DNA of 64,000 nt from Octopus vulgaris. Taxonomy: Eukaryota. Location of the stretch: contig OX597831.1 of the NCBI GenBank assembly GCA_951406725.2, positions 20,522,001-20,586,000 of the forward strand. Reading direction: 5' to 3'. The position numbers were made by a program, and so were the translations under genes. The stretch's first letter is position 1, and every line of letters starts with the position of its first letter. A model generated the notes under the pieces. The model ran no database searches. It saw nothing but the letters and a program-made list of their open reading frames with translations, and had not been told where the DNA came from. Positions 43,813-64,000 of the stretch are shown here, in pieces.

Positions 43813-44084
43813 GGTATAGAATTATCCACAATTTTGTATATTTTCTTGCTGATTCCCTCGCGTTCGTACCTGTAGTTGAATATAGAGAGCAAATTTTAGA
43901 ATGGATTGTAGGTATTTGACATCTACTTCTAGCGCAGGTGCTGGTTATTTCCAGTAGCCCTTAACTATTAATATAATTATACTTTTATTATTATATATGT
44001 AAAAGAATTAATATTACCTATACGGTCATTTTTATGCGCTAGGCCACTGATATCATTTTTATGATTATATCCCTATTTTATATA

Positions 44085-44961
<877 letters not shown>

Positions 44962-45589
44962 GCATATACAAAGATGTATGATGAATACATATACACACAC
45001 GTACGCACGTGCACACACGCACGTGCATACACGCTCACATACACAAGTATATACATATATAAAATGTATACATACTTTAGTTTTAAAACAGAACAAACAG
45101 CGAGGGATTATTAATCCGGGCAAAATACTTCATAAGCTCTTTGTTGGCACATAAGGTTGACAATATTTCTTAGATTAGTGAAGAACTCCAGGTAATTTTC
45201 TGGTAGGCTCCAAGGTTATGGTTCATCACAATTCTATATTGTAAATCCGTGGATGGGCTCAGACAAACTGGTTTTTAGACAGAGTGTTAGATAAGAAACA
45301 AGTTAAAAATAGTGGTCATTACATATTCCTCTATTGCAGTAAATTTGGCTTACAGCTGTTTCCAGTAGCTATTATAGATACGTTACTGATAGGTTTACTC
45401 AGTTGGTCTATTGATCAATTGAGGCAAATTGAACTACCTAAGAAAATTAATGCTACTTTCATCAGAGCCATTTCTGGTTATAACGAGTAGAGACTGGAGG
45501 AATGGCTATTGTGTAAGGAAGGTGGGAGGAGAAGATGGGAATGTTCAAGTAGAAGAGAAAACTTTAATTTTAAGTCGACTAGATTATTT

Positions 45590-46080
45590 TTCATAGCTTT
45601 TGTCTCCAAACACGCCCGCTCACATTGAATCAGTTCAAAGTTTACAGAAAACGTTCACTCGTGAGATAACTTCGCTCTAAAGACTTGATTATTGGAAACG
45701 ACTCGAACTTTACGTTGCTATTCCTTTGATAGTCGTAGAGAGAGATATGTTGTCTTTTTTATGTATACGAGATCTTAGAAGGTCATATTCCAAACTTCGG
45801 CATGAAAGAAAACTTTAATGCAAAAACTGGTAGATACTGCCAGCTTTCACATATACTGTCTCAAATATCACAAACAAAAGCATTTTAATACAACAATCTA
45901 ATATTTCAAGGCTCTCAAGTGTTTAACTGATCACCTAAGCAAATCAGACACGTAAAAGGGACTTCTATCGAAATATTTAAGAAATCATTGGATGGACTAC
46001 TCGCCAAAATTCCAGCCCAGCAAAAAATATACAAGTTTACATTAAAGGAAGGTCAGCTGCTTCTAACTTAAGTATAGAGT
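45590..46080 (+). mobile_element. CR1/L2-type LINE 3' end relic
   Basis: LQKTFTR...LDYWKRL...RRERY...ILEGHIPNFG...PKQIRHVKG..IEIFKKSLDGLLAKIPAQ. Confidence 0.75.
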
Positions 46081-46257
46081 AACTTCCAGCTACAAAGCTC
46101 CTACAAAATTGAGAAGTTGTAATAAATAAATAAATAAATAAACGAATAATTAAATAAATAAATAAATAAATATAAATCTGGAAACGGCAGCGCTTTTGCA
46201 TGACCGCAATCTATTGACGGAGACAGCATAAATAAACAAAAGAATAAGGAATACTTA

Positions 46258-46694
46258 TCTATTATATAAAATCCGTTCTGTATGTCTGTGTGTGTGTCTT
46301 CTAGGATCTCGGGCATCCTCCATCCGATTGCGCTCAAATTTGATATGTACATATCGACGGTATCAGGGCGTGTGTAAGTCTTGAAAAAATTACAAAACTC
46401 GATTCCAGGTGAGAATGCGATCGATAAAGTGAATAAAATCGTTTTTCTTTGGAACAGGAAAAAAGTCTATCTTTATTTCTTCTTTTGCTGGTGTCTCAAA
46501 TTTAGGTTAAATCAGTGTTTCTCAAAGGGGATGCCTATGGGACGGTCGGACAAGTTGTTTTGAGTAAATTTGGTTTAAATGTTTGACAACTCAGCACCAT
46601 CCATTGGACGCGGGGGAGGGATTTTTCTCGTGTATATATAAGCACACATATACATGCATTTGTAATTTTGAAGGGGCATCCTGCCGCATACTAG
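46258..46694 (+). mobile_element. Non-autonomous Helitron
   Basis: A|TCTATTATATAAAA 5' end, subterminal GGCA-TCC-TGCC hairpin, CTAG|T 3' end; inserted between A and T with no TSD. Confidence 0.75.
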
Positions 46695-47264
46695 TTCTAT
46701 TCACTTCAGTTTTATGATAAATTAATTACATAATTATTTAGATAATTAATTGATTAATTGGCTTGTTGAAGTTCTTATTTTTAACGATGATGATTTTCCT
46801 CTTCTGTACACTTTGTTGCACCCACGCCATACTATGTGTCACTTGCTTGGAACATGATGTGGATTTCGAGAAACCAAACAGTCAATTAACAGATTACTCA
46901 ATTAATCATTTATGTAATTATATGATAATAAACCAGAAACGAAATAAAATCAGTGTATTTCAGTTGTTTGATCCTTCTTACGCTGTCTACATCGAGAAAT
47001 TTTCATGATAAATTATAGTGAATGTACACGTATGTATGTATGTATGCATGCATGCATACCTGTATGTATGTATGTATGTATGTATGTATGTATGTATGTA
47101 TGTATGTATGTATGTATTTATGCATGCATGCATGCATGTATGTATGCATGTATGTATGTATGTATGTTTGTATGTATGTATGCATGTATGTATGCATGTA
47201 CACACACACACATATATATATATACACATATATAAATTTAAAATAATAGGAGGAGGAGGAGGAA

Positions 47265-47599
47265 GGGACCCCTTCGGTCATGAATGATCATGGGATTGCA
47301 CCTACAAAGTTACCCTCTGAGGTACAAGTCCGGGCAAGGTTGTTTGTGGAAGGCCAGCAGTCGCCCATGCATACCAGCCTCCCCTCTGCACACCACTGAT
47401 GTTATCCAAGGGAAAAGCAAAGGCCGATACTGCTTGGCACCAGTGATGTCACAACTCATTTCTAAAACTGAGTGAACTTGAGCAATGTGAAATAAAGTGT
47501 CTTGCTCAAGATCACAACACGCAGCCCAGTCCGGGAATCGAACTCACAACTTCACGATCGTAAGCTCTACGTTCTAACCACTGAGCCATGCGCATTCAC
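47265..47599 (-). mobile_element. tRNA-derived SINE, head type 2 with tail type 3
   Basis: Head matches 23394; tail ...GGTGCAATCCCATGATCATTCATGACCGAAGG matches 59622-59790. Confidence 0.85.
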
Positions 47600-47729
47600 A
47601 AATTAAAAATAATAAGGATGAAAAATTGAATATTAATTTGATTCATATCAATTTAAAACCAGTGGTCTAGTATATTAAAATCTGAAAATTCAAAAAAATT
47701 ATATTACATACATACTACATGGAATGACG

Positions 47730-47801
47730 ATCATACTGATGAGCTATGGACAATTACGTAAGTAATTTGCCTAAGTGGTAATAGCGAAACTACTTTATGA
47801 T
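47730..47801 (+). ncRNA. Type-I hammerhead ribozyme motif, one stem III mismatch
   Basis: ATCATA-CTGATGA-GCTAT-(AATTAC GTAA GTAATT)-ATAGC-GAAAC-TA-CTT-TATGAT; lies in element about 47615-47920, homologous to 44135-44605. Confidence 0.75.
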
Positions 47802-47914
47802 TAAACTATATTTTGTTTATTTTCATTTGTCTTGCTCGCTTACGTTCTGGCGTTTGGTAACTTTTCTTGAGAACATTCCTATCATAATGGATGTCCACGT
47901 AGTGGTCACCCCTG

Positions 47915-47952
<38 letters not shown>

Positions 47953-48240
47953 ATAGTATGAGGGTTATTACGCAAGTAAATTTCAGAAATCGTTAAGAGG
48001 GATATATAATCCAGGCAGGTACCGTGCTCGCTCTTATTGGTTAACAGTGCTGAATGTAGATAAACTCCGGTTAGTTAAATTTACTCTGCTCACTTGATCC
48101 TCACTTCGGTAAATCCAAATGTCCTTATAAAGACTGCATAGTGCCGGTAGAGAAGAAATAGGAAATTAATAAATATCATGAGAACAAAGATTTACACATT
48201 TAAGTTTTATTATATAGTTAATCACATCTTTATTTGTCAG

Positions 48241-48326
48241 GAGCTACGCGCGTTTCCGCTGCAAGCCGGTGCAAACTGCAAAGTGTGCATCTTGGTGTTA
48301 ATTACCGGTGCTGCTTTATCAGGTTC
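48241..48326 (-). ncRNA. Degenerate hammerhead motif (PLE type)
   Basis: GAAC-CTGATAA...GAAAC-GCGC-GTA-GCTC; palindromic stem III ACGCGCGT, G8 mutated. Confidence 0.55.
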
Positions 48327-48489
48327 GGATATAACTGTAGTTCAGATATCATCTGAATTGTGTATAAGCTCAACCAAAATTATTCTTTTGTGTGGTGTTA
48401 GCGTTACTATATATCTTGAACTTTTAACAGAGCCAGAGTATTGACTTAATTTAAGAGAGTAGGTTCCAGTAAATTCCTAACTGAAATTA

Positions 48490-48590
<101 letters not shown>

Positions 48591-48878
48591 CAGAGGCAGA
48601 TAACGTTTCTTATTGTCAGAGTTGAGATATATCACCAAAAACAAAAAACAACTCAACTGAAATGTGTTTTGTTACTGAAAATTATAGAGATGGTGGTGGT
48701 GGTGATGGGTTGATAGCGAAAAATTACGGGGAGAAGATATAATAAAAAGAGGGAAAAGACAACACCGATGTTTAAAGACAGCTAAATTACGAGTGCCATA
48801 AAAATGCAAATCATCCTTTCGTTCTAAAAATAGCTCCTCTTAATTTTTCATTCTGTGGAATTTACACGGGGCCCACTA

Positions 48879-48946
<68 letters not shown>

Positions 48947-49444
48947 TTGTGTGTGTGTGTATGTGTGTGTGTGTGTGTGTGTGAATGTGTGTGTATCTAT
49001 ATATAAATCCCCAAAGCGGAATAAGAATGTAACGGATGACAATAAAAACATACGGACAGAGATAGACAATACAAAGACTGACAGGAAAGAGCAGGACGGA
49101 TCATTTGTGGTGCTCTGTTCATCAGTCAAGCTTCCAATTATCATTACAGTTTCGGCCTGTTATACTTGAGACTGTTAAAAATTGGTAGGCCCAAAAAATC
49201 CAAGCTAAGAGCATTAAACTTTCGGAAGAAAGCAAGCGAATGTGCACGAAAACACAGAAAAAGAAACGAGAAAACAGAGAAAATGTTACACGATTACAAA
49301 TACAAACAACAAAAGAATAACAAGAGGTATCTTTCGACTAATAAGGTTAATTTAAGTTGAGCTAACGAGTGCAGTGAAAGCCTTGAGGCACAAACATAGA
49401 TGAAAGTCAGGAGACATGAAAATAAGGTGTTGTAAGTTATATAC

Positions 49445-49738
<294 letters not shown>

Positions 49739-50133
49739 TGCAGTACCAGGCCGTGGCTTTCATGACTTTTCATCTTAACTGATTGCAAGTGTTATCATGT
49801 ACATTGTTTAGTCTTGGTATAAAAGATGGGCTACAGCAAATATTCTGCTCAGTACTACAGATTTGCTTGTCAATTGTTTGACCATAAGCAGCTGAGCATG
49901 TCCCTTCATGGCTGACGATATGTGCATCTCTGATCACGAGCAGAAATAGTGAGGGAGCATCATAGCCATGTGTTGAGAGGAATTCTTTGGGGTTTGGATA
50001 ATTCATCTCTGGAAACATGGGTGTTTTGTTCAAAATCCTTAAACAACCCTTATTCAAGGACCTTTTGAGCGGGATGGGCTACTCGAGCTGAAGAAAATTC
50101 TAACTGGGCCCCACCTGCAAGGTCATGTGCTGT
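49739..50133 (+). mobile_element. Interspersed repeat family C, 5' part directly after (TAA)n
   Basis: TGCAGTACCAGGCCGTGGC... reverse match to about 5225-5615. Confidence 0.75.
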
Positions 50134-50801
50134 TAAACATTGAATTTTTTTTCGTTGTACATGCTATTATTCTATTTGTTCGTTTGCTATAAATGTTTGC
50201 TTTAGTTTATCATACATGACTTTCATTGAAATAAGCTTCAATGCGGTTGTGTCATGCATCACGAGAAAAATAACCACATGCTACAGAACGCTTAAGGTAT
50301 GATATAGGATCCCTAATGCCTACTGCAATTGCGATCTCATTTCATGGGCTTTCATTTCTTACTAACTGCCAAATTTGTGTTAGAAAAACTCAATTCTTTA
50401 TCATATGATTAACTGCAAACAAAATTGGTAAATATACATTTTAAGTTTATCAACTTGAAACGACTTCTAATTACAAGCGAATTCACCTTAAACCGTCCAA
50501 AGTCGTGCGCCATTATAATAAATTACACCGTCCAAAGGACTGATGAGTTTGTATATGTATATGTATACACACACACACACACACACACACTCACACACAC
50601 TCACACACATATTAACGTACATATGATTTGCCCATAATACATACATATATGCATACGTACATGCATGCGTACATATATACAAACATAGTACATGCATACA
50701 TGCATACACACGTACATATATAATTCATACATGCATACATACATACATACATACATACATACATACATACATACATACATACATACATACATACATACAT
50801 A

Positions 50802-52037
50802 CAAGGTGCATAAGATATTTGAGGATATATTTATGCTTATAAAAATAGATATATAATAACAGATAACATTAGTTTTAAAAAAATGCTATGAGAATAAAAA
50901 TATACCTTTTCTATAATGTTATTCAATAATGCCAACTTCAGCTTCAACAACTGCTTCCATATGAGACCTAAACCATCTACATGCTCGAAATAAGAGGTCC
51001 TGGTTCATTATGGACATTATTCTGACTATGGCAGCTTTCAAAGAATCTTCATTGACCTCTTTCTCAACAACGCTCCACATGTAATAGTCCAATGGATTGA
51101 GATCTGGGGAATTAGGAGGCCAAATGTTAGGGGTTATGTGATCATGAACATTTTCAGCCATCCATTCCTGTGTTACTAGAGCCATGTGTGATAGTGCTGA
51201 GTCTTACTGAAACACATATGGCCTTCCATTGCATACACTGTCTATCCAGTGCTTAACAATTATTTCCAGGACCTCAATGTTGGCGGCAGAGTTAACTCTA
51301 AGACCTTGTGGAAAGAAGTAAGGAGTCATGAGATATCCTTCATTGCTGACAATCCTTAAAACCGTGTCAATTGCAGGAAATTTTGTATGCTTAACACTTA
51401 GAACAGCAGAGGGGTCTGCGCATGACCATCTAGCATTTGTTTTGTTAACTTTTTGATCTCAGTTGAAGTATTTCTTGTTTTAGAAAAAACTAAATCAAAT
51501 CTTCTGCTGGATTTTTCAATTTGATTAAGATCCTTTTAGACCTGATGTAGTGATTTTCTTTTGGCCTTCCTGACAAATTGACCTTTCCTCATCGTATAAG
51601 ACTTATATCTGATGTTTTCGTGGACAACATTTCTGGCTGTTCCTTCTGACACATGGAGCTCGTTTGCAATTGACTTCATGGTCTCTCTGGGATTGTAATT
51701 AATGGTCTGTTGAACTTGCTTAATAAATTCAGGTGTTCTAATGATTTCAGAGCGTTTAGAATACTTTTTATGATTTGATACCGGAGATATGTTTTTGTCT
51801 TCAGTCTCTCGCTCCTTACAAACTTTGTAGGTTAAAGATCTGACAAAATTTAAAAATCGAGATATTTGTAAATCGCTATGTTCCGCCTTTATAAGCACAA
51901 TACCAACACGACTCTTCATTTCTTGGGTAAGCTGAGATTCTAGCATTATTATTTTCTGAAACAAAGATTATACAGAGTTAGCAAAAAATGCAGCAATAAC
52001 CCCAAAAGTTATGTCCTCAAATAACTTACGCATCCTG
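50802..52037 (-). mobile_element. Full-length Tc1/mariner (maT/DD37D-like) transposon with disrupted transposase
   Basis: Imperfect 28-bp TIRs CAAGGTGCATAAGATATTTGAGGATATA / TATGTCCTCAAATAACTTACGCATCCTG; HTH region in ORF 51536-51964; WPPNSPDLNPLDYY in ORF 50919-51185; stops and frameshifts between them. Confidence 0.9.
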
Positions 52038-52369
52038 AACATATATATATATATATGTATGCACACACACACATATATCTATAAATACACACATACACAT
52101 ATATATGTGTGTGCATATATATATATAAATATATATATACATCTAAAATAGGATAAAAATTTTCGAAATAACTTTTATCAATGGCCAGCATATTAAAAAA
52201 TACCTTTAAAGGTTAAATTTATAAATAACTTTATAAAATAAGGGCAAAAGAAAAAAATTCTAATGCCAAATATGCCGAAAATAGACAAATTGTCATTAAC
52301 CATTATAATTTATCACAATTAGAATACATCTCGAAACAAACCGATAGAAATTTCTAAAAAATTCCGTTA

Positions 52370-52430
52370 TTACCGTATTGGTCCCAATTTCAGAGTTAAT
52401 TCATAAGAATTTTCTCCTCCTCAGCGATAA
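52370..52430 (-). ncRNA. Type-I hammerhead ribozyme, apparently intact
   Basis: TTATCG-CTGAGGA-GGAG-(AA AATTC TTAT GAATT AA)-CTCT-GAAA-TTGG-GA-CCAA-TA/CGGTAA; all core nucleotides present, AUA cleavage triplet, G-U at the base of stem II. Confidence 0.8.
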
Positions 52431-52597
52431 ATACGCTCTTATTTTATAAGTTATATATATATATATATATTATATTAAGTTAGAGATAAAACCACTATTA
52501 GGCAAATCAAACAATGAAAAACATAAGCCAATACATAAAATTAATTAATATATATTATTTTAAATATATATCAAAAGTATTAAAAGTTTAATAAAAG

Positions 52598-52631
<34 letters not shown>

Positions 52632-52633
52632 TA

Positions 52634-52697
<64 letters not shown>

Positions 52698-53106
52698 ATA
52701 TATATATTATATGTATATGTGTATGCAATATATCCGTATGCAAACAAACATGTATGAAAAGATTTTTTATAGAAAAAAATCAGAAATGATTTCCATGCTA
52801 TAATTGATATTAATTGAAGGTAAATTACTTTCGTGTGATAATATTTTGAATAATTGAATTGAATTTTTAATAAGAGCACATATGTAAGACTGTTTTGTAC
52901 ATAGTTTTTAGATATGAATATATATATACACGCACATATCTATGTATGCATATATATGTATGCATGTTGGTGTGCATATATATATATATATATATACATA
53001 CATATATAAATGTATATATAGATGTATGTATATAAATATATATGTATTTATATAGATATAGGTATATATATGTGCGTGTGTGAATATTTGTGTGTGTGTG
53101 TGTGTA

Positions 53107-53158
<52 letters not shown>

Positions 53159-53409
53159 TGTGTTTATATTAATGCTTGGTTTTATGCCGAGTTACAATAG
53201 GAAGAAATTTACATTAAACTGAGGGATTACAAAATATTGTTTTTTAGAGCATATGTTTATTAATGTTTAACAATGTGCTGATAGTAAGTTCAGTATTTCG
53301 GCCTGCTTAGCCTTCATCATGTATGTATGTATGTATGTATGTATGTATGTATGTATGTATGTATGTATGTATGTATGTATGTATGTAGCACTTGCGGTAG
53401 CACTTGCGG

Positions 53410-54185
53410 AATTTAGGCTTCTATTCCATTCTTCCCCGATGTCAATGAAGAGGTTGACAATCCAGTCAGGAACTCGAAGAGCAAACAGATCATGAAATCG
53501 ATTCTCCATATCTTCGTGCAGTTTGGTGAGGTGGGAGCAAAAGACAAGCAGATCCTCGTCTGCAGGTTTTCCGTCCTTTACAAAACCAGTCAAGCAAGGA
53601 AGCTGGAATAATTCCCTGCGTCCAATATTGCGTTTATACATAACAAGTTTCGCTTGAAATGTTCAAATGGTTGACTTAACTTGGATGAGATTTACACCAT
53701 CTCCTTACAGCTGCTTACTCACTTCGTTGACTTTAGTGAATAAGTCAAACAAGTATGCAATATCATTCTTTATACTTTTAAGCCTCACACTAAGTTTCGA
53801 GAAGGCAGTATCAAAGAACTTCGTTACTGAATCAAACAAAGCATAAAAGCGATACAGACAATTTCCCCGTGAAAACCACCTCACCTCTGTGTGGAACAGC
53901 AAGATTTGAGTCTTCGTCGTTTTCAAAGCAAATCTGTTGAAACAAGCGAGAGTTCAGAGCATGAGATTTGATTTTATTCACAGCGGTGAGGACCGTGTTT
54001 AGGGAATAGTGAAGACGGCCACTGAGGTTTCGTGCAAAAAGATGTTGTCAGTGAACCATGCAGTGCATCGGGAAGACATCAGGTAGACTGACTTTGAGAT
54101 AACTGAGGAAGCCGCGATGACAGCCAGTTGCAACGAATGCATTGAGATTATTGGGGATAGTGAGCAAACAATATCTGTATCCATT
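53410..54185 (-). pseudogene. hAT (Buster/Charlie, SCAND3/ZBED8-like) transposase relic
   Basis: MHCMVH, NSRLFQQ, LLFHTEVRWFSRGNCL, IAYLFDLF, HLTKLHEDMENRFHDL...PDWIVN. Confidence 0.9.
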
Positions 54186-54430
54186 TATACACACACACAC
54201 AGAGACACAGACACAGACACACACACAAACATACACACACACATACACACACACACATACACACAGACACACACTGACACACACACAAACTTGTTCGTGT
54301 GTGTGCGTGTGCCTCGTTTTGGGTACAGAAGGAATTTCGTCTCCAGTATTTATTGCCTACTGAGGTCAAAGGCTATTGCTCTGGGTACAAAGTGAAAGTG
54401 ACCAGCTTTTCAACAACGTCAAATAACAAC

Positions 54431-54476
<46 letters not shown>

Positions 54477-54629
54477 AATACATCTATACACAGCTAAATC
54501 AAAACCGTCTGGAATCTTAATAAAAAGAAATATGACCACATCCATACAAATATTCTCTCTCCCTTAAACTAATGAATACAAAAGAATTAAGAAAAGGAAG
54601 ACCATGAAATGTAATTGTAATTCTTACTG

Positions 54630-54836
54630 GTTCATCTATCACGGTTTACATACCGCGGTTCATCTGCTGCGGTTTGTTAAGCTTTCGCCGATTTATCAGT
54701 GGTGTTGTTTCGCATTTATAAAAAAATAAATCTATACAAATTATAAGAATAATGAAAAAATATAAGTTCTGTTTCTACTTTCACCTATCATAGGGTGGCT
54801 TGGAACGTAGCATTCGCGATTCCGAGGGATTACTGT
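54630..54836. mobile_element. pogo/Tigger-like MITE fragment
   Basis: Terminal CGCGATTCCGAGGGATTACTG|TA (reverse CAGTAATCCCTCG) and repeated CGGTT motifs. Confidence 0.55.
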
Positions 54837-54890
54837 ATATGTATATGTGTATATATATATGTGTATATATATGTATATATATATGTATAT

Positions 54891-54956
<66 letters not shown>

Positions 54957-55068
54957 GTGTACTCCTTATTCAATCCGAATTAGGGACTTTGCAGCCTTTG
55001 AAACATATGTAGAAAATAATAAAAAGGAATTTTGTTAAATCTTCGTTCAGCTCCATTTCTTCCTATAC

Positions 55069-55129
<61 letters not shown>

Positions 55130-55140
55130 GTATATAAATA

Positions 55141-55192
<52 letters not shown>

Positions 55193-55193
55193 C

Positions 55194-55256
<63 letters not shown>

Positions 55257-55745
55257 CATGCGTATGTTACTGCGAATAAGTACTTGCTGTTTTTAATACA
55301 TATTTTATATGCATTGAGTAATAATCCATCCCGTAATTTACCACAGATTTGTATTCTATCGTCTTGATGATAAGAATTTTTGAGTAAGTACATTAATATA
55401 AGACAGACTGTTACATAAACCTACGTGTGTTAGCGGAGAGAGACAGACACAGGCTGAAGCAGTAAGTAGACGCCTGCTAGCCAGAGAAATATATAGATAT
55501 ACAGATTAGTTAGATTCAATACATATTTAAGTAAAGAGTTATATTTCATAATGTCTATGTAGTTACTGTCATAAGTATATGGTTACCGTAAAGACTTAAC
55601 ACCGATCGTGTACATAAAGTCTCGACTTAACAATCTATGTACGAACACATACACACTCCTACATACATGTATGCACACACACACACACACACACATACAC
55701 ACACACACACAGCCATATATATTTTATTATTACTATTATTATTAC

Positions 55746-55935
55746 GGCTAGCTGGCAAAGTCGTTAGCGTGCCGGATAAAATGATTAGCGGCATTTCGGT
55801 CGTTATATCACCGAGGTCGATTACGCCTTTCGTTATTTCGAGATCGTTGAAAGAAGTGCCAGCTGAACGCAGGGGTCAATGTAATCGATTTACTTTCTCC
55901 TCACAAATTGTTGCACTTGTGGCAAAATTTGAAAC
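55746..55935 (+). mobile_element. SINE family D, diverged
   Basis: AGCTGGCAAAGTCGTTAGCGTGCCGG...GAGGTCGATTACGCCTTTC. Confidence 0.65.
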
Positions 55936-55989
55936 CATTATTATTCTTATCCCTTCGTAACACAGTGATGGTAAAAATGCAGCGTCTGT

Positions 55990-56750
55990 CAAGTCACAAC
56001 AAATAATACTTTCCTTAAGATGTACGCTGTGCCCAATCAGGCTGCTTTTTGCAAGACATGAATCTTGCATGGGAATTCCAGTTGCCTTAAGAAGTTTTGA
56101 AGTTTCAATAGGAATGAGCTCCGATCACCACTGGTATCACTTTTACATTACCCTCTCATATTCCATACAGTCTTGCTATTTCCACTTTCAATTTGGAGTA
56201 CTTGGTGATTTCTTTCGACCTCTTTACTCACAACATTCATGTCTTTTGGTATGGCTACATCAATAATCTGACAGTATGTGTCTCTCTTATTCAATATGAA
56301 AATATCTGGCCGACGGTGTTCGATTAACCGATTCGTTTGAAAATCATAGTCCTAGAGTATCGTTACTTTTCCATCCTCCTGCATAACTTTACTTGGTACA
56401 TGCTCATACCAGTTCTCTGTTACTTCATATTGGCATTTATGGGATAAAAGCCAATGAAGACACACACACACTCTTTATCATGGCAGTGCTTGTATTCTAT
56501 TTGTGCAAGGCTCTCACTTCCACTTACCAAGTGGGTCACATTTTCCACACTCTTTCCACAGAGTCTGCATTTCTGGCTGCTAGAAGTCTTATAGATACTA
56601 TACTTCACTGAATTGGTAGCGAGAGCTTGATGTTGTGCAGTAATGATCAGGCTTTCAGTGGTACGCTTCAAATCACCTCGCCCAAGCCATGCCCACGATG
56701 CTGTATTATCCTTGTGTATTTCTTTCAAACTGTGTATTTGTTTGAGCACA
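55990..56750 (-). mobile_element. R4/Dong-clade LINE 3' relic (finger + restriction-like endonuclease)
   Basis: SWAWLGRGDLKRTTESLIITAQHQAL, KCRLCGKSVENVTHLVSG, IEHRRPDIF, IIDVAIP, LQKAALIGTAYILRKVL. Confidence 0.88.
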
Positions 56751-56917
56751 AACTGTTAAACCCCACCAAAAATGTTTTTCCTCTCTGACTCCCACCAAAA
56801 TTCTTTCTAATATTTCTAATATTTGATAAGATGAATACACCGAAAGCGGTAATATTTTATTAAACATTCTCTAAAACATACTTCTGTGCCTTTACCAACT
56901 GTATTTACTTTTCTTAA

Positions 56918-56987
<70 letters not shown>

Positions 56988-56991
<4 letters not shown>

Positions 56992-57176
56992 TGTATATTT
57001 AAATACATAAGAGGTATCCATCTGAAATCATTGGTCCAGGAGTTAGATGGTAAATGTTTTAATTTTTCATTCCCTTCGAAATTTTATCCCCAAGAGTTGT
57101 TTAGAATTTAACTGTCCCCTCTAGCGTGCAAGGATTCCTATGATGGATACCTCTTATGTGTTTAAATGTATACTGT
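56988..57176. repeat. Short fold-back element with 35-bp inverted ends abutting (TA)n
   Basis: ACAGTGTATATTTAAATACATAAGAGGTATCCATC (56988-57022) versus GATGGATACCTCTTATGTGTTTAAATGTATACTGT (57142-57176), 3 mismatches. Confidence 0.8.
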
Positions 57177-57696
57177 ATTTATATGAATAATATATAGTTT
57201 ATTGACTAAATTTCTACACGCTAGGCCACCGATAATAGAAATTTCTAATATATCAGATTACCCTTTGATATCATATATATATATATATGAATATTTCCGG
57301 GTGCTGTCGCATAATTATAAATTTTAGAATTAAGTGAACATTCTCCGATTTGGTATAGTAAGTTTTAACACTGAATCCGAATTGCTTCAGATGGTTAGAA
57401 TTGTATAATGTCAACTCAGTTAGAAAACAGGAATCGGAAACCGCACATTTTCTGTCTGATAGGTCTCTGTCACAAAATCTTAGGTAGAAATAGGCTCCTA
57501 CCAGAATGAAGCTCATGTCATTGAAGATCAATCTGGCTTGAGAGATGATGTGAAGTTTCTGTTCCATTTAACCTCTGCTTTCAGGTTCTTCCATAAAAAC
57601 GGAGACCTACTTTTCATCAAATTTTAGAAAATTCCGAACATCAGTAATGCCAGATGGAATTCGTGAATAATCTTAGCCCTTCTTGCATTTTTCCTC

Positions 57697-58014
57697 ATGT
57701 CACATATGAGAGAAAGATTGCAGATGGTCTGCCAGTTCAACTTATATGACTGGGCGGAATACTGGCTCAGTGACCAAATGTATAGAGCTGAAGATTATGC
57801 AGAGCTATCGCAAGGCTTACTACACTACAAGACTGCTTTGAAATACTTGACAAATCACTGGAAACAAGAGCTATCAAAACTAAACATCAGCAGAAGCAAT
57901 CAATGCAATGAGCGAGCAATTAGAATCATGCAAGAACTACATGCCACATGCAAGAACAAAGCCAACATGCCATTGCGATTCATTCTCTCAAATGACTTAC
58001 CGCAACTAATTTGA
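57697..58014 (+). pseudogene. DNA transposase fragment (hATm-like motifs), internally deleted
   Basis: YRAEDYAEL and SNQCNERAIRIMQE resemble the RxDYxEL and NDxAERxxKL motifs of hAT-related transposases. Confidence 0.45.
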
Positions 58015-58435
58015 CTTTGTATGTATGACTTACCTTCTTTTTATTGTTCTGGAATGCAAAATAGAATTCTTTTAACAGTTGTGGATTAAACGTTTTGGAT
58101 CTTTTCCCCTTTCTTTTGTGTATTACCCAACCGTGGTTATAATTTTTCGAAATCTACCCAAATGCAACCGAGTATAAATAGATGAACTTTTTTGATCAAA
58201 TGAAAAAAAAAAGCACATTGATTTTCATTGTTTTCTCGCCAATGCTCATCAGAATATGATGCAAACAAGTTGTATCCTTGTATATATACATATATACATA
58301 CAAACATACATATACACATGAAAACATACACACATACATGCATGCAGACATGAATATATAGATGCATGCATGCATACATATATACATACATACATATATA
58401 TACATAAATAACACATGCATATAGGGACTTTCGCG

Positions 58436-58456
<21 letters not shown>

Positions 58457-58469
<13 letters not shown>

Positions 58470-58794
58470 TTAGAGACAAAACCACTATTTTGCAAAACAA
58501 ACAAGGCAAGACTTAATCAATACATAAAATTTTAATAAAAGTCAAAAAAACCCCCACTCCAATTGTTTCTTATCCGGATCGACAATCTTCTGGTGGACTA
58601 CCAATCAGTCAGTTTCAAATTATGAAGTCCTTTGAAACTGACTTATTGGAAGTCCACCTGAAGATTGTCGATCAGGACAAGAAACAATTGTAGTGGCGGT
58701 TTTTTTGACTTTTTATTAAAATTTTATGTATTGATTAAGTCTTGCCTTGTTTGTTTTGCAAAATAGTGGTTTTGTCTCTAATTAATATTATATA
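58457..58794. repeat. Long palindrome (about 163-bp arms, 11-nt loop) of a PLE pLTR-like unit in (TA)n
   Basis: Arms 58457-58619 and 58631-58794; 7 substitutions and 1 indel, outer about 80 bp identical. Confidence 0.95.
58654..58696 (+). ncRNA. Minimal type-I hammerhead ribozyme, intact
   Basis: CCAC-CTGAAGA-TTGTC-GATCAG-GACAA-GAAAC-AATT-GTA/GTGG; perfect stems I and II, palindromic stem III, predicted cleavage after A58692. Confidence 0.85.
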
Positions 58795-59274
58795 ATATTT
58801 TACTATAAAATTGGATTTAATCCTAAATCTGATTTTTCCCTGTAAATTTGGATTTATTCCCTAATATTTATATATATATATATATATATAGATATGTGAA
58901 ATTTATGTGTGTATATGTGTGTATATTAAGTCAACAAAATAATCGGGAATTAGTTCTATGCCATAATTGATATCAATTAGAAACAGGATATTTAAAATTA
59001 TAAAAATAATTAAATTTTAACTTCCATTACATCAATGCAATTATAAAACCAGCATTTGTATCTAACCGTGGTTGCTTTTTAATCTATTTTCAATTATGCA
59101 CACACGAGCACACAAACATGAACACTTACAAATGCACACACAGAGGCACTCACACACACGCGCACACATACATACAAACACACACACACACACACACACA
59201 CATACGCATACACACAGGTGTCACTGTTTTTAAAATATGAATACCTGTATGTATGTTTCATGCGTTAGATATTC

Positions 59275-59545
59275 TTCTACTTAATCCCTTTTTCCCCTTG
59301 TGGAGCATAGGGCCTCAACAGTTGTTTTTTCACTTTTTGCAGTCATTGGCGTGTTTCTTGGCTGCTTCCCATGTCAGGCCGGTGGTCCTGAGCTCGTCCA
59401 AAATGCTCCGCTTCCATGTCTGCTTCGGGCGTCCTCGCTTCCTTTTCCCCTACGGGTTCCAGTCAAATGCTTGTCGTGTCACATTTGAGGGTTTTTCTGC
59501 AGTGTGTGTCCGATCCATCTCCTTTTCCTTTGTCTAATCTGAACA
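59275..59545 (-). mobile_element. RTE-clade LINE 3' end
   Basis: RKRRWIGHTLQK...WNP.GKRKRGRPKQTWKRSILDEL...VEALCST, followed by an AGTAGAAGAAT tail. Confidence 0.85.
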
Positions 59546-59621
59546 TGTATAAGCTCCTGTTTGGCCTAGGAGCCCATTCATGTTCGGATATAAGCGTTAG
59601 ATATAACAGTGTTAGATACTG

Positions 59622-60109
59622 TGACCTCCTTCGGTCATGAATGACCATGGGATTGCACCTAGAAAGTTACCCTCTGAAGTACAAGTCTGGGCAAGGTTGT
59701 TTATAGAAGACCAGCTGTCGCCCACGCATACCAGCCTCCCCTCTTCACGCCACTGATGTTATTCAAGGGAAAGGCAAAGGCCGATACAGCTCATTTATTA
59801 ACGTGCAAGTGGCAGAGCACTCCACTGACATGTGTACCCTTAACGTAGTTCTCGGGGAGATTCAGTGTGACACAGAGTGCGACAAGGCTGGTCCTTTGAA
59901 ATACAGGTACAAAAGAAACAGGAAGAAAGAGAGAGAGAAAGTTGTGGTGAAAGAGTACAGCAGGGTTCACCACCATCCCCTGTCGGAGCCTCGTGGAGCT
60001 TTAGGTGTTTTGGCTCAATGTACACTCACAATGTCCGATCTGGGAATCGAAACCGCGGTCCTACGACCGCGAGTCCGCTGCTCTAACCACTGGGCCATTG
60101 CGCCCCCAC
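59622..60109 (-). mobile_element. Chimeric SINE (family B head/body + tail type 3) flanked by about 25-bp TSD
   Basis: Junction at about 59790; AGCGTTAGATATA(A)CAG(T/C)GTTAGATA at 59593-59618 and 60113-60137. Confidence 0.8.
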
Positions 60110-60320
60110 AAGAGCGTTAGATATACAGCGTTAGATATAAGAGAACTCAAAGAACAAAGCGAGTTATAAATATGGTAATTTCGAGGCATGTAAATATATA
60201 TGAGAACGCTAATGTGGCTGGAATGACTTCAATATGTATTTTAGAAAGTTACTTTGTCAAGCTACTTTAAGAAACGTGCAATTTGTGATTAGAGTAGTTC
60301 CCGACGATTCAAGGGGGGTG

Positions 60321-60535
60321 GGGGGTGCTGAAAAGTTCCCAGCTTTGGGTAAAAGAAAATACAAGAGGATTAGTTAATCATTATGTTTTCCAACGTATTC
60401 CCCTCTCAGATTCACACATTTGGTGCAGTGGTCCTTCAGTTTTTCTAAGTGCTGTAAAAGAACTCGGAAGTTTGGGCCTCCAACCAGGTCTTTTGGGATA
60501 CCCTCAAAGCCGAGAACATTTTAGTACCCCTCGGA
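60321..60535. mobile_element. mariner-derived MITE
   Basis: Imperfect TIRs GGGGTGCTGAAAAGTTCCCAGCTTTG / CAAAGCCGAGAACATTTTAGTACCCC. Confidence 0.7.
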
Positions 60536-61034
60536 TATGAATGGTTCCGGTAACTCCATAAGGTTAATCTATCAGACCGTAGAAAGCAGAAGAGGTTCGC
60601 AAAAACAAAAATTTAGCGGGTGTTTCTGTAGAACGATGTAGAATGAAACATGAATAGGACTATCATACACATTTTATTTCGTACATTGAGATTCACGCGA
60701 GAGCTAAAAAATAATATTAATTAAATCATACTTCTATACAAATTTCTACGTGGTAGAACTCAATGAGAGTGGGGGGAATGATATTAATATATTCATAGAA
60801 ACACAGAGGGACAGAGAGAGAGAGAGAGAGAGAGAAAAATTACAACGATAGAAAGATACATAGATATAAACACGCATTAATACATACACCTGTATATGTA
60901 ATATGGCTATGCGTACCTATAACTGCATATAATTATGTCTATATTATATATATGCATATAAATACATTACATGTATATATCTTTATGTGTCTGTTAGTAT
61001 GTGTTTTATATATTATAGCATATCTATCTATATT

Positions 61035-61158
<124 letters not shown>

Positions 61159-61169
61159 AAAAAAAGAAA

Positions 61170-61520
61170 TATAACATGTGACTTCATTGACCGAGGTTAC
61201 CGTGGTCTTTTCCGTAGGCTTTTCTTTCCACGGGTAAACCTCACCTGTCCTCCCCTTTACACTTCATATTGACATTTCTGTGATAACGATCCCTATTGAT
61301 CAATTTTTTTCCTCTCCCCCTTTTTTAACCCCCCCTTTTTTTGTCCTCTTTCTCTCCTTTTACGATCCCTTTTGATCGACCCCCCTTTTTTATTTTATTT
61401 TTATTTTATTTTTTATTTTTTTTATTTTTTATTTTTTTAATTTTTTAAACCTTCAAAAGAAAAGCTCTACCTTGTAATTTGTTCTATCTGTGTGCAGCCC
61501 TGTGTGGCTAATAAAGAAAC
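61170..61520 (+). mobile_element. Putative LINE 3' UTR inserted in (TATC)n
   Basis: Pyrimidine-rich tract ending TGTGTGCAGCCCTGTGTGGCTAATAAAGAAA, flanked on both sides by (TATC)n; end resembles the SINE D tail. Confidence 0.5.
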
Positions 61521-61521
61521 A

Positions 61522-61575
<54 letters not shown>

Positions 61576-61624
61576 CCTACCTATTTATTTATTTATCTAT
61601 TTATTTATCTATCTACCTACCTAT

Positions 61625-61685
<61 letters not shown>

Positions 61686-61686
61686 A

Positions 61687-61729
<43 letters not shown>

Positions 61730-62629
61730 CGTTCCCTATATAGGAACTAGTATAAATGTAGAGAGCTTTTCACTTACCCACAGGCTTTCATATTCTTTGC
61801 TTTCTTATTTTTCGAATAGCATTGACGAAACAGGAAGCATGAATTTTCGATGTATATTCACAAACGGACTATACTACTGTGTTCATATTTCATCTGCAAT
61901 GTCACTGCGTACGCAGTTTTGGTTCATATAAGAAAGCATTACTTAAGATATATGTGCATGTGTGCGTTTGTGTGTTTGTGTGTATGTATGTGCGTGTGCG
62001 TGTGTGTGTGCGTATGTGTATGTGTCTGTGTGTGTATGTGTGCGTGTGTATGTCTGTGTGTGGAAGTCTAAAAGAATATGTAGATACATGTGTGTGTATA
62101 ATCCTTCTCACTCTCTATATATATGTTACAGTATGCATATTTACTATAAAGATTGCATTCGTTAATACGTAATATGTATGATTGTGTGTATTGTACACAT
62201 ATGTATGCCTGTATATCTATGCATGTACATGTATGTTTATATGTATTTGCGCTAAGTGTCTATACATACATACATACATGTATATATACATAATAGCATA
62301 AATGTGGGTTTATATGCACTCAGACACAGACACGCACACACACGCAGGAGACAACCACACCAACTCAGACACTCACACACACGTACAAATATATATATAT
62401 ATATATGTATAATGTATATATACTCATACATACAAAGCCATACATGTGAAATTCACGCGTGTGTATTACGTCTACAGAACAATCAGGAATTATTTCAATG
62501 CCATAATTAATGTTAATTAAAGGTAAATTATTTTCATGTGATAAAAATAATATATCTAATTAAATCAATTAGATTTCTAAACGAAAATACGTATCTAAGT
62601 CAGTTTGTGGTTAACACTTCGCTCGAAGA

Positions 62630-62715
62630 TATATACATATATATATACATTTATACGTGCATGTATGTATGTATGTATGTATGTATGTATGTATGTATGT
62701 ATGTATGTATGTATG

Positions 62716-62770
<55 letters not shown>

Positions 62771-62865
62771 ATACAAAGGGAGGGAACTGTGCATTCATAA
62801 GTGTGTAACGTAGTATGTATATATATGTGTATAGGCATGCACATGCACAGAACAATCCGTTCGTG

Positions 62866-62936
<71 letters not shown>

Positions 62937-63006
62937 ATATATATATATATATTTATACATATATATATATATATACATTATCTATCTATCTCTCTCTCTA
63001 TCTATC

Positions 63007-63045
<39 letters not shown>

Positions 63046-63772
63046 CTCTCTCTCTCTCTCTATGTATGTATGTATCTATCTATATTTATATATCTGTTTG
63101 TCTGTCTGTATGTCTGTCTCTCTGTCTAGTTGTCTGTTTATCTCTCCATTTCTCTCTCTCTCTCTCGCTGTGTCTCTGTCTCTCCCTCTCTTTGTATATA
63201 TATATTTATATGTATATTTATATGCATTTATGAATGAACCAAAGTACGTACATTTAAAGCATTCTTTTTGAAGTGAATAATGTCAAGATAAATGGGTAAT
63301 TAGTTGGATGTCTATTAAATTCATCCGACTGATAAAATGGTGTTTTAAATGAGTTTTTGTAGCAATGCTTTATGTAATATTCTTTTACTTCCCGGTAACG
63401 CATACTTATGTTTCTATGTACGTAATATTTGTGCCACCAAACATATACTTACAGAAACACACACGCATGCACCCCCCGCACACATTGACAAGCTCACACT
63501 GACAAACACACACATATATATATATGCAAGCCTATATACACGCATACACACATTCACCTCTCTCTCTCTTCCTCTCTCTCTCCTTCTCTCTCTCTTTCTC
63601 CTTCTCTCTCTCTCTCTATATATATATCCATCCACTACCTCATGTATACCACCATGCATATATCCATACATATATATGTATACATGTGTATACATGTATA
63701 AAATATATATTCATACTAACTTATGCAGACGTACGTATAAGTATATATATACATACGCGCACACACACACAC

Positions 63773-63815
<43 letters not shown>

Positions 63816-63930
63816 TATATATATGTATATGTATATACATATATTTATAAATATATATATATATGTATATATATAAATATGTATATATATGTATATATAT
63901 ATATATGTATATATTTATATACATATACAT

Positions 63931-63972
<42 letters not shown>

Positions 63973-64000
63973 GTATATATATATGTATGTATATATATAT
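62630..64000. repeat. Dense microsatellite field (TATG, TA, TATC, CT, CA)
   Basis: Seen directly. Confidence 0.9.

Follow-up and report, generated by a model that had tools for sequence, protein, structure and literature searches.

A large palindrome in the octopus genome is most probably a spliced 5′ UTR stub of a young Hydra-clade Penelope-like retrotransposon

The Hydra-clade EN+ Penelope-like elements (PLEs), as described in the account of Craig et al. (2021, PMC8557442), insert into (TA)n, carry hammerhead ribozymes and have a unit of less than 3 kb. An inverted, 5′-truncated copy together with a tail at one end is given as standard for PLEs in the cited passages (PMC8557442; PMC3846280), and minimal hammerheads on opposite strands, 100–700 bp apart, have been known since 2014 from Schistosoma (PMC4209133). 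The latter source, whose naming of the hammerhead stems is used here, describes minimal PLE hammerheads as not cleaving as monomers and cleaving little as dimers. For Penelope of Drosophila virilis, spliced forms are reported as RNA, while the genomic copies described keep the intron (Schostak et al. 2008, PMC2377424; Cervera and de la Pena 2014, PMC4209133). The purified Penelope protein PAc, from the Poseidon element of Anolis, cuts and extends both strands, and two internal RT start sites flank the tail; the hammerhead of this element needed protein for its activity, and was dispensable for insertion in vitro (Frangieh et al. 2024, PMC11167929). Two matters are presented as open in these accounts: the significance of intron retention by PLEs is described as unknown (PMC8557442), and whether the template is an antisense RNA or an unspliced sense RNA is left undecided (PMC3846280).

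We analysed a palindrome in a 64,000-nucleotide stretch of Octopus vulgaris DNA (the window). With a probability of roughly 0.85, it represents two head-to-head copies of the spliced 5′ UTR of a young Hydra-clade Penelope-like element, left in (TA)n by one dead-end insertion; neither the Penelope-like origin nor the splicing had been recognized in the original prediction. The right arm and its tail (58631–58870) were defined as family positions 1–240, and the features of the locus are listed below.

58436–58462, no strand: left side of the (TA)n target, read from the sequence; the point where it meets the arm is hard to place exactly, as the arm is AT-rich there, and nearly all printed family copies lie in (TA)n.
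58457–58628, minus strand: left (short, inverted) arm, a copy of the spliced 5′ UTR from the presumed transcription start (family position −8, at 58628) to the short end (about 164–167).
58507, minus strand: variant base common to 58744, with two matches in the whole assembly, both at this palindrome.
58553–58606, minus strand: cluster of seven private substitutions (13% per site), absent from 256 other arms.
58554–58596, minus strand: mirror hammerhead, containing four of the seven private changes.
58605–58606, minus strand: joint between the two exons in the left arm, with one of the seven changed bases at 58606.
58629–58630, minus strand: two G at the joint of the arms, explained by the template of neither arm and possibly cap-derived.
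58631–58870, plus strand: right (long, direct) arm, a copy of the spliced 5′ UTR that starts 9 nt short of the presumed start and runs to the long end.
58644–58645, plus strand: exon–exon joint of the right arm, where long copies have a 1.83–1.85-kb GTAAGT...TTTTAG intron.
58654–58696, plus strand: minimal type I hammerhead with a palindromic stem III; predicted cut after 58692.
58744, plus strand: variant base, present only in the two palindrome arms by family alignment and assembly search.
58795–58870, plus strand: one-arm tail with two 37-nt repeats and a predicted 13-bp hairpin at 58807–58836.
58871–58890, no strand: right side of the (TA)n target, read from the sequence.

When reverse-complemented, the left arm aligned with the right arm over 163–164 bp (58457–58619 and 58631–58794), in agreement with the original prediction of about 163 bp. 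The outer 84 bp were identical, where about 80 identical bp had been noted, and the seven reported substitutions, six of them transversions, all lay in the inner 67 bp; in addition, a T run near 58540 differs in length by 1 nt between the arms, which had not been included. The 11-nt stretch described as a loop was present, but it is not a spacer, as nine of the 11 nt belong to the 5′ terminus of the left arm itself (minus strand) and the other two are the untemplated G. Beyond the arm homology, the right arm extends about 76–90 nt as the tail, to approximately 58870, and is followed by the TA repeat. Such a palindrome is far beyond chance, yet it is common in the Octopus genome, with 125 short ones among the fetched loci, and its head-to-head layout with a one-sided tail is the known footprint of PLE insertion.

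Several other features were detected in the window. A related fragment, previously placed at about 52480–52550, was recovered at 52452–52550 with 86% identity; it is an older, 5′-truncated pLTR fragment covering family positions ~84–178, of the short-end type, in (TA)n and without a hammerhead. At 56975–57189, a small inverted repeat with 48-nt arms (88% complementary, 119 nt apart) adjoins (TA)n and may be a MITE or a fold-back stub. Broken transposase-like frames lie on the minus strand at 50919–51967 and 53267–53662, and by eye we take them to be Tc1/mariner-like and hAT-like. A motif scan detected CTGATGAG...CGAAAC at 47744 on the plus strand, which may be a further hammerhead-like core. 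No host gene was evident by eye among the ORFs of at least 90 aa at 44000–64000.

To describe the family, we used the right arm and tail as a query and obtained 1040 first-look candidates, the 40 scored among them being 96–99% identical. The 35-nt hammerhead core had 693 exact matches in the genome, against 0 for the control. An inverted partial copy adjoined 25 of the first 30 loci (the palindrome's own locus counted and a spurious alignment at L020 left out). By following pairs of hammerheads on opposite strands, separated by a few kb, we reached an ORF, many copies of which are 97–99% identical, several being open over 828–862 codons. In one locus (L130), the order is GTAAGT donor, 1845-nt intron, TTTTAG acceptor, hammerhead, ATG (family position 302), 840-aa ORF and 1.7 kb, and the ORF is followed by a second pLTR with donor, 1828-nt intron, acceptor and hammerhead, which terminates at the short end; the full-length unit is 6310 bp. 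The pLTR repeat flanks the ORF on both sides in four loci (L130, L133, L134 and L136). Within the pLTR intron of L107 and L104 (1.8–2.4 kb), we observed internal repeats of promoter-side sequence.

The 840-aa protein contains YRDD (residue 359), YIG (733), DKT, CxCx5C, CxxC and CxH motifs, and RIKWK at residue 41 occupies the position of the RWK motif of the Hydra clade. Pfam and PDB searches with the parent ORF gave no RT or GIY-YIG match, and a homolog search returned 40 unnamed or mis-named relatives, none with a clade label. Look-alikes in a protein atlas scored 0.95–0.98 and belong to clusters in which GIY-YIG and RVT_1 are present in 18–50% of members. Based on the motifs and atlas clusters, the element has the single ORF with RT and C-terminal GIY-YIG of an EN+ PLE; in addition, it has partial tandem pLTRs, the inverted 5′-truncated copy, the tail at one end, and a pLTR hammerhead together with a spliceosomal intron in the 5′ UTR. 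The DKT motif, the CxCx5C linker, CxxC/CxH around E and N, and the (TA)n targets are those of the Hydra clade. The parent thus appears to be a Hydra-clade Penelope-like retrotransposon, its clade being assigned by motifs and not by a tree, and the locus is an ordinary stub of a new Hydra-type family; the RIKWK reading, the longer unit and the negative Pfam and PDB searches speak against this assignment. The parent ORF (L130:2410–4929) also carries an asparagine-rich insert between the RT and the endonuclease, as reported for Penelope families of rotifers (PMC3846280).

Compared with the Hydra-clade EN+ PLEs in the cited account (PMC8557442), the octopus family has the same C-terminal GIY-YIG, DKT, CxCx5C linker, CxxC and CxH, as well as the pLTR hammerhead, (TA)n targets, inverted 5′-truncated copy and one-sided tail. 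It differs in its 6.3-kb unit with a 1.8-kb intron (against less than 3 kb), in the N-rich insert of its ORF, in its tail of ~76–90 nt (against 30–40), and in the splicing of about half of its hammerhead-bearing arms. With Penelope of D. virilis, it shares the start site in the pLTR, the 5′ UTR intron ending just before the hammerhead and the small palindromic stem III, whereas spliced DNA copies are abundant only in octopus, as far as the two descriptions go (PMC2377424; PMC4209133). The description of PAc (PMC11167929) matches in that the tail lies between two internal RT start sites, in the cutting and extension of both strands and in the AT-rich targets; however, these start sites are inside the ORF in PAc, while both precede the ATG in the octopus family. 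Animal non-LTR retrozymes are likewise short, non-coding, PLE-related and equipped with a type I hammerhead, but they are defined by a tandem arrangement in which every unit contains a hammerhead (bioRxiv 10.64898/2026.07.22.740005), whereas the octopus locus carries a single hammerhead on each strand and is itself a fragment of an autonomous parent.

We then analysed how the two arms of the palindromes are paired. Arm ends clustered at two sites, ~167 and ~240–257, both AT-rich with the exact base blurred. Where both arms of a head-to-head pair contain a hammerhead, a short end is combined with a long end in 95 of 100 cases. Three subfamily markers agreed between the arms in 74/74, 85/85 and 98/98 cases, indicating that both arms come from one source, and the splice state agreed in all 67 informative pairs, only one of which carries the GTAA form (the other 33 pairs were truncated). 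Nine longer head-to-head insertions (L104–L109, L132, L136 and L137; 1.4–9.1 kb) keep the intron acceptor on both arms; seven of them follow the short/long rule and two have another end.

The full agreement in markers and splice state would also suit a palindrome of the same element formed from one cDNA that folded back or was recopied, by self-priming or later arm conversion, instead of from two primed cDNAs. The variant base shared by 58507 and 58744 and by nothing else in the assembly points in this direction, and self-priming has been proposed (PMC3846280). In 14/91 palindromes, a variant found in no other sampled locus was present on both arms, which fits arm-to-arm copying as well as two cDNAs from one source. 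However, which arm reaches further 5′ varies among palindromes, the joints show overlaps, gaps and inserts, and the short arm has a fixed outer end of its own. Self-priming on an antisense template, moreover, does not suit the spliced arms. We therefore regard an origin from one cDNA as possible but distinctly the less probable, and prefer two primed cDNAs.

The state of the 5′ UTR intron was next compared among copies. In both arms of the palindrome, the donor-side exon is joined directly to the acceptor-side exon (58644/58645 in the right arm). Genome-wide, exact matches numbered 314 for the spliced joint and 296 for the retained acceptor. The loss coincides with the GT-AG sites, and the ends of the intron carry no repeat. 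Some spliced arms have 4 extra nt (GTAA or GAAA), as expected if the GT at +5 served as the donor, and among the long copies there are some in which the first GT has become GA (donor GAAAGT). These observations argue for intron loss by splicing of sense RNA.

The 5′ ends of spliced arms piled up at family position −8 (44/152, in a sample partly enriched for that end). This position lies inside TCACTT, which contains TCACT, a sequence called initiator-like in a rotifer pLTR (PMC3846280), and is presumed to be the transcription start from where the copies in this partly preselected sample end. The intron was kept in 0/60 of the examined copies that start exactly at −8 (30 of the 47 with G in front and 30 of the 36 with A or T), 56 being cleanly spliced and 4 diverged or odd. 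Conversely, with a templated C in front of −8, and leaving out GAAA donors, 95 of the first 100 copies listed (of 110) keep it, as do 9/9 of the ORF-linked downstream pLTRs in view (10 loci). Eight spliced arms extend upstream of −8, so that the sorting rule is not absolute. This near-perfect sorting of spliced and unspliced copies by their start at the presumed promoter favours sense templates, and it points to sense-RNA templates with position-dependent splicing. We also considered a cap-derived G before the start; it precedes 47 copies, against 36 with A or T, but many of these G may come from the opposite arm, and the excess is a hint at most.

The short copies in which the hammerhead is intact, nearly identical and numbering in the hundreds, might instead constitute a self-propagating, non-autonomous family, retrozyme- or SINE-like, that descended from one spliced founder, and animal retrozymes have been argued to derive from PLE pLTRs (bioRxiv 10.64898/2026.07.22.740005). 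Spliced and unspliced arms, however, have the same marker haplotypes, suggesting that spliced stubs arise repeatedly from long sources; the two donor choices likewise point to repeated birth from several long sources. The 5′ ends pile up at the presumed start of the parent, and most short copies are not in tandem arrays. A self-propagating family is thus an improbable account of the short copies, which we ascribe to the long parent. At one place (L208–L210; G000:C5:64451597-64451836), three spliced 5′ ends stand in tandem about 107 bp apart, possibly the start of a retrozyme-like array.

These observations can be joined in a reading that we hold at slightly better than even odds, in which sense RNA is the template and the pLTR intron is spliced only as the first intron after the cap. 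The pLTR promoter would produce a capped RNA in which the first intron is spliced and that of the downstream pLTR is retained. The element's enzyme would cut both strands of the (TA)n target, and each end of the target would prime copying, at two AT-rich sites that flank the tail and are separated by about 90 nt, much as PAc does in vitro (PMC11167929). The two arms may be templated by one RNA, by two RNAs of a single locus or by one cDNA that is copied twice. Where reverse transcription starts in the unspliced downstream pLTR, it would give long, intron-keeping copies and seed full-length insertions; where it starts in the spliced 5′ UTR, it would give stubs of 175–260 nt that run off the 5′ end of the RNA, and the two cDNA ends, joined head to head, would form a dead-end mini-palindrome. 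Each insertion would use one pLTR with two RT starts, one for each target strand, the short/long pairing being fixed. For the present locus, the left arm (58457–58628) would be a full run-off product and the right arm would have stopped 9 nt short. By itself, this model leaves the near-strict short/long rule of the genome (95/100) unexplained; the two start sites of PAc showed no strand preference in vitro as described (PMC11167929).

With regard to the ribozyme, the right arm contains at 58654–58696 the elements CCAC-CUGAAGA-stem II (5 bp)-GAAA-C AAUU G-UA-GUGG, with GUA at 58690–58692. The intact minimal hammerhead and its GUA site were thus correctly recognized in the original prediction, as was the altered mirror copy, with its CAGAAGA core and GGA triplet. 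Of the hallmarks of the minimal type I class, namely, a core of CUGANGA and GAAA, an NUH site, stems I and II and a stem III that is short and palindromic, the right arm has every one, and the left arm departs in core and site; at gathering thresholds, Rfam gave no match anywhere in the window. The forced monomer fold scored −5.5 kcal/mol, against −6.6 for an alternative fold, while two copies gave a double hammerhead, sharing a stem III of 8 bp, with a score of −22.2 kcal/mol. The hairpin of a read-through transcript scored −229. Because the head-to-head layout leaves one sense ribozyme per strand, the predicted need of a same-strand partner and the folding of read-through RNA into a long hairpin make cleavage unlikely, and on these models the intact hammerhead probably does not cut at the locus. 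There would then be no motive for selection against the mirror copy. The proposal of a designed switch between hairpin and ribozyme is not sustained, since this is the arrangement that insertion of the element ordinarily produces.

Finally, we examined the seven substitutions, which lie at offsets 14, 20, 29, 44, 48, 61 and 67 from the palindrome centre (58606, 58600, 58591, 58576, 58572, 58559 and 58553). Four are within the mirror hammerhead, namely, 58591 (core U to A), 58576 (loop II), 58572 (stem II wobble) and 58559 (GUA to GGA), and three fall outside it. Polarized against family copies, all seven sit on the left arm, and their alleles were present in 0 of 256 other arms (offset 14 being readable in only 18 of these). 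The right arm departs from the family majority only at the base shared with the left arm and at two common markers. No donor subfamily for the inner part of the left arm was detected among the 40 scored of 369 candidates, the next best being 91% identical.

For comparison, 265 fetched loci were merged by context into 125 short palindromes, including the present one; they were picked by similarity or exact patterns, which favours young copies and under-counts damaged ribozymes. Over 13,787 bp, the arms of the other 124 showed 67 differences (0.49%), of which 31 were assigned to the short arm and 34 to the long. No difference was present in 78 and one in 35 (113/124 with at most one), the highest counts being 4 and 5, the latter (L038) taken from the count and not inspected. 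Against this background, the left-arm cluster is an outlier, with a Poisson P of ~9e-6 for the single locus and ~1e-3 over 125 loci. That the cluster is truly outlying, and that both core and cleavage triplet are altered, would be in keeping with inactivation of the mirror ribozyme by selection at a hairpin/ribozyme switch. However, 2/7 changes at conserved hammerhead positions are expected by chance (P = 0.49, counting 12 positions as conserved), and three lie outside the ribozyme. Core and cleavage site are intact in 94/98 other inverted arms (97/105 direct arms), and the right arm, within one base of the family majority, allows little time for seven selected changes. Selection against antisense cleavage, as suggested in the original prediction, is accordingly very improbable, and the seven changes are likely unselected.

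The two other causes offered there fared no better. Homogenization of the arms is at odds with the location of all seven changes on the left arm beside a right arm close to the family majority, and systematic error-prone synthesis of the inner arm with the equal rates in an earlier set of 90 palindromes (17/3634 bp inner, 34/6691 bp outer). An origin by RNA editing or deamination was rejected, as there was no A-to-G on either strand and only one C-to-T. A general assembly error at hairpins was also rejected, given that 113/124 other palindromes have at most one difference, and any artefact would be local. Read contigs from four runs (three studies), matched at 99% to 58465–58650, covered the common outer part and not 58542–58604, and none bridged the joint at 58627–58630; an assembly error and absence of the insertion from those animals would both give this pattern, which therefore favours neither. 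Failure of base calling is described at inverted duplicates (PMC7229812), and 13 mixed changes per 100 sites, on one arm beside a hairpin turn, resemble such failure, if reads of this kind built the assembly. We give a consensus error at the hairpin, an artefact for which the original prediction had allowed, a little over an even chance; a real, one-off clustered mutation comes somewhat short of even, and anything else has a slim chance. The knocked-out mirror ribozyme is real in the assembly and private, and is most likely meaningless noise in a single insertion among hundreds like it.

The kind of element, its inverted layout, its tail and its hammerhead were already known. In the literature searched, which lacks most subscription papers, we found neither abundant spliced, promoter-anchored genomic copies of PLEs nor the rule by which copies are sorted. 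The short/long rule offers an in vivo counterpart to the two RT start sites seen in vitro. The pattern of short, spliced copies and long, intron-keeping copies likely explains intron retention by PLEs; it makes this question testable at the level of the family, and outweighs the mirror ribozyme for which the locus had been flagged.
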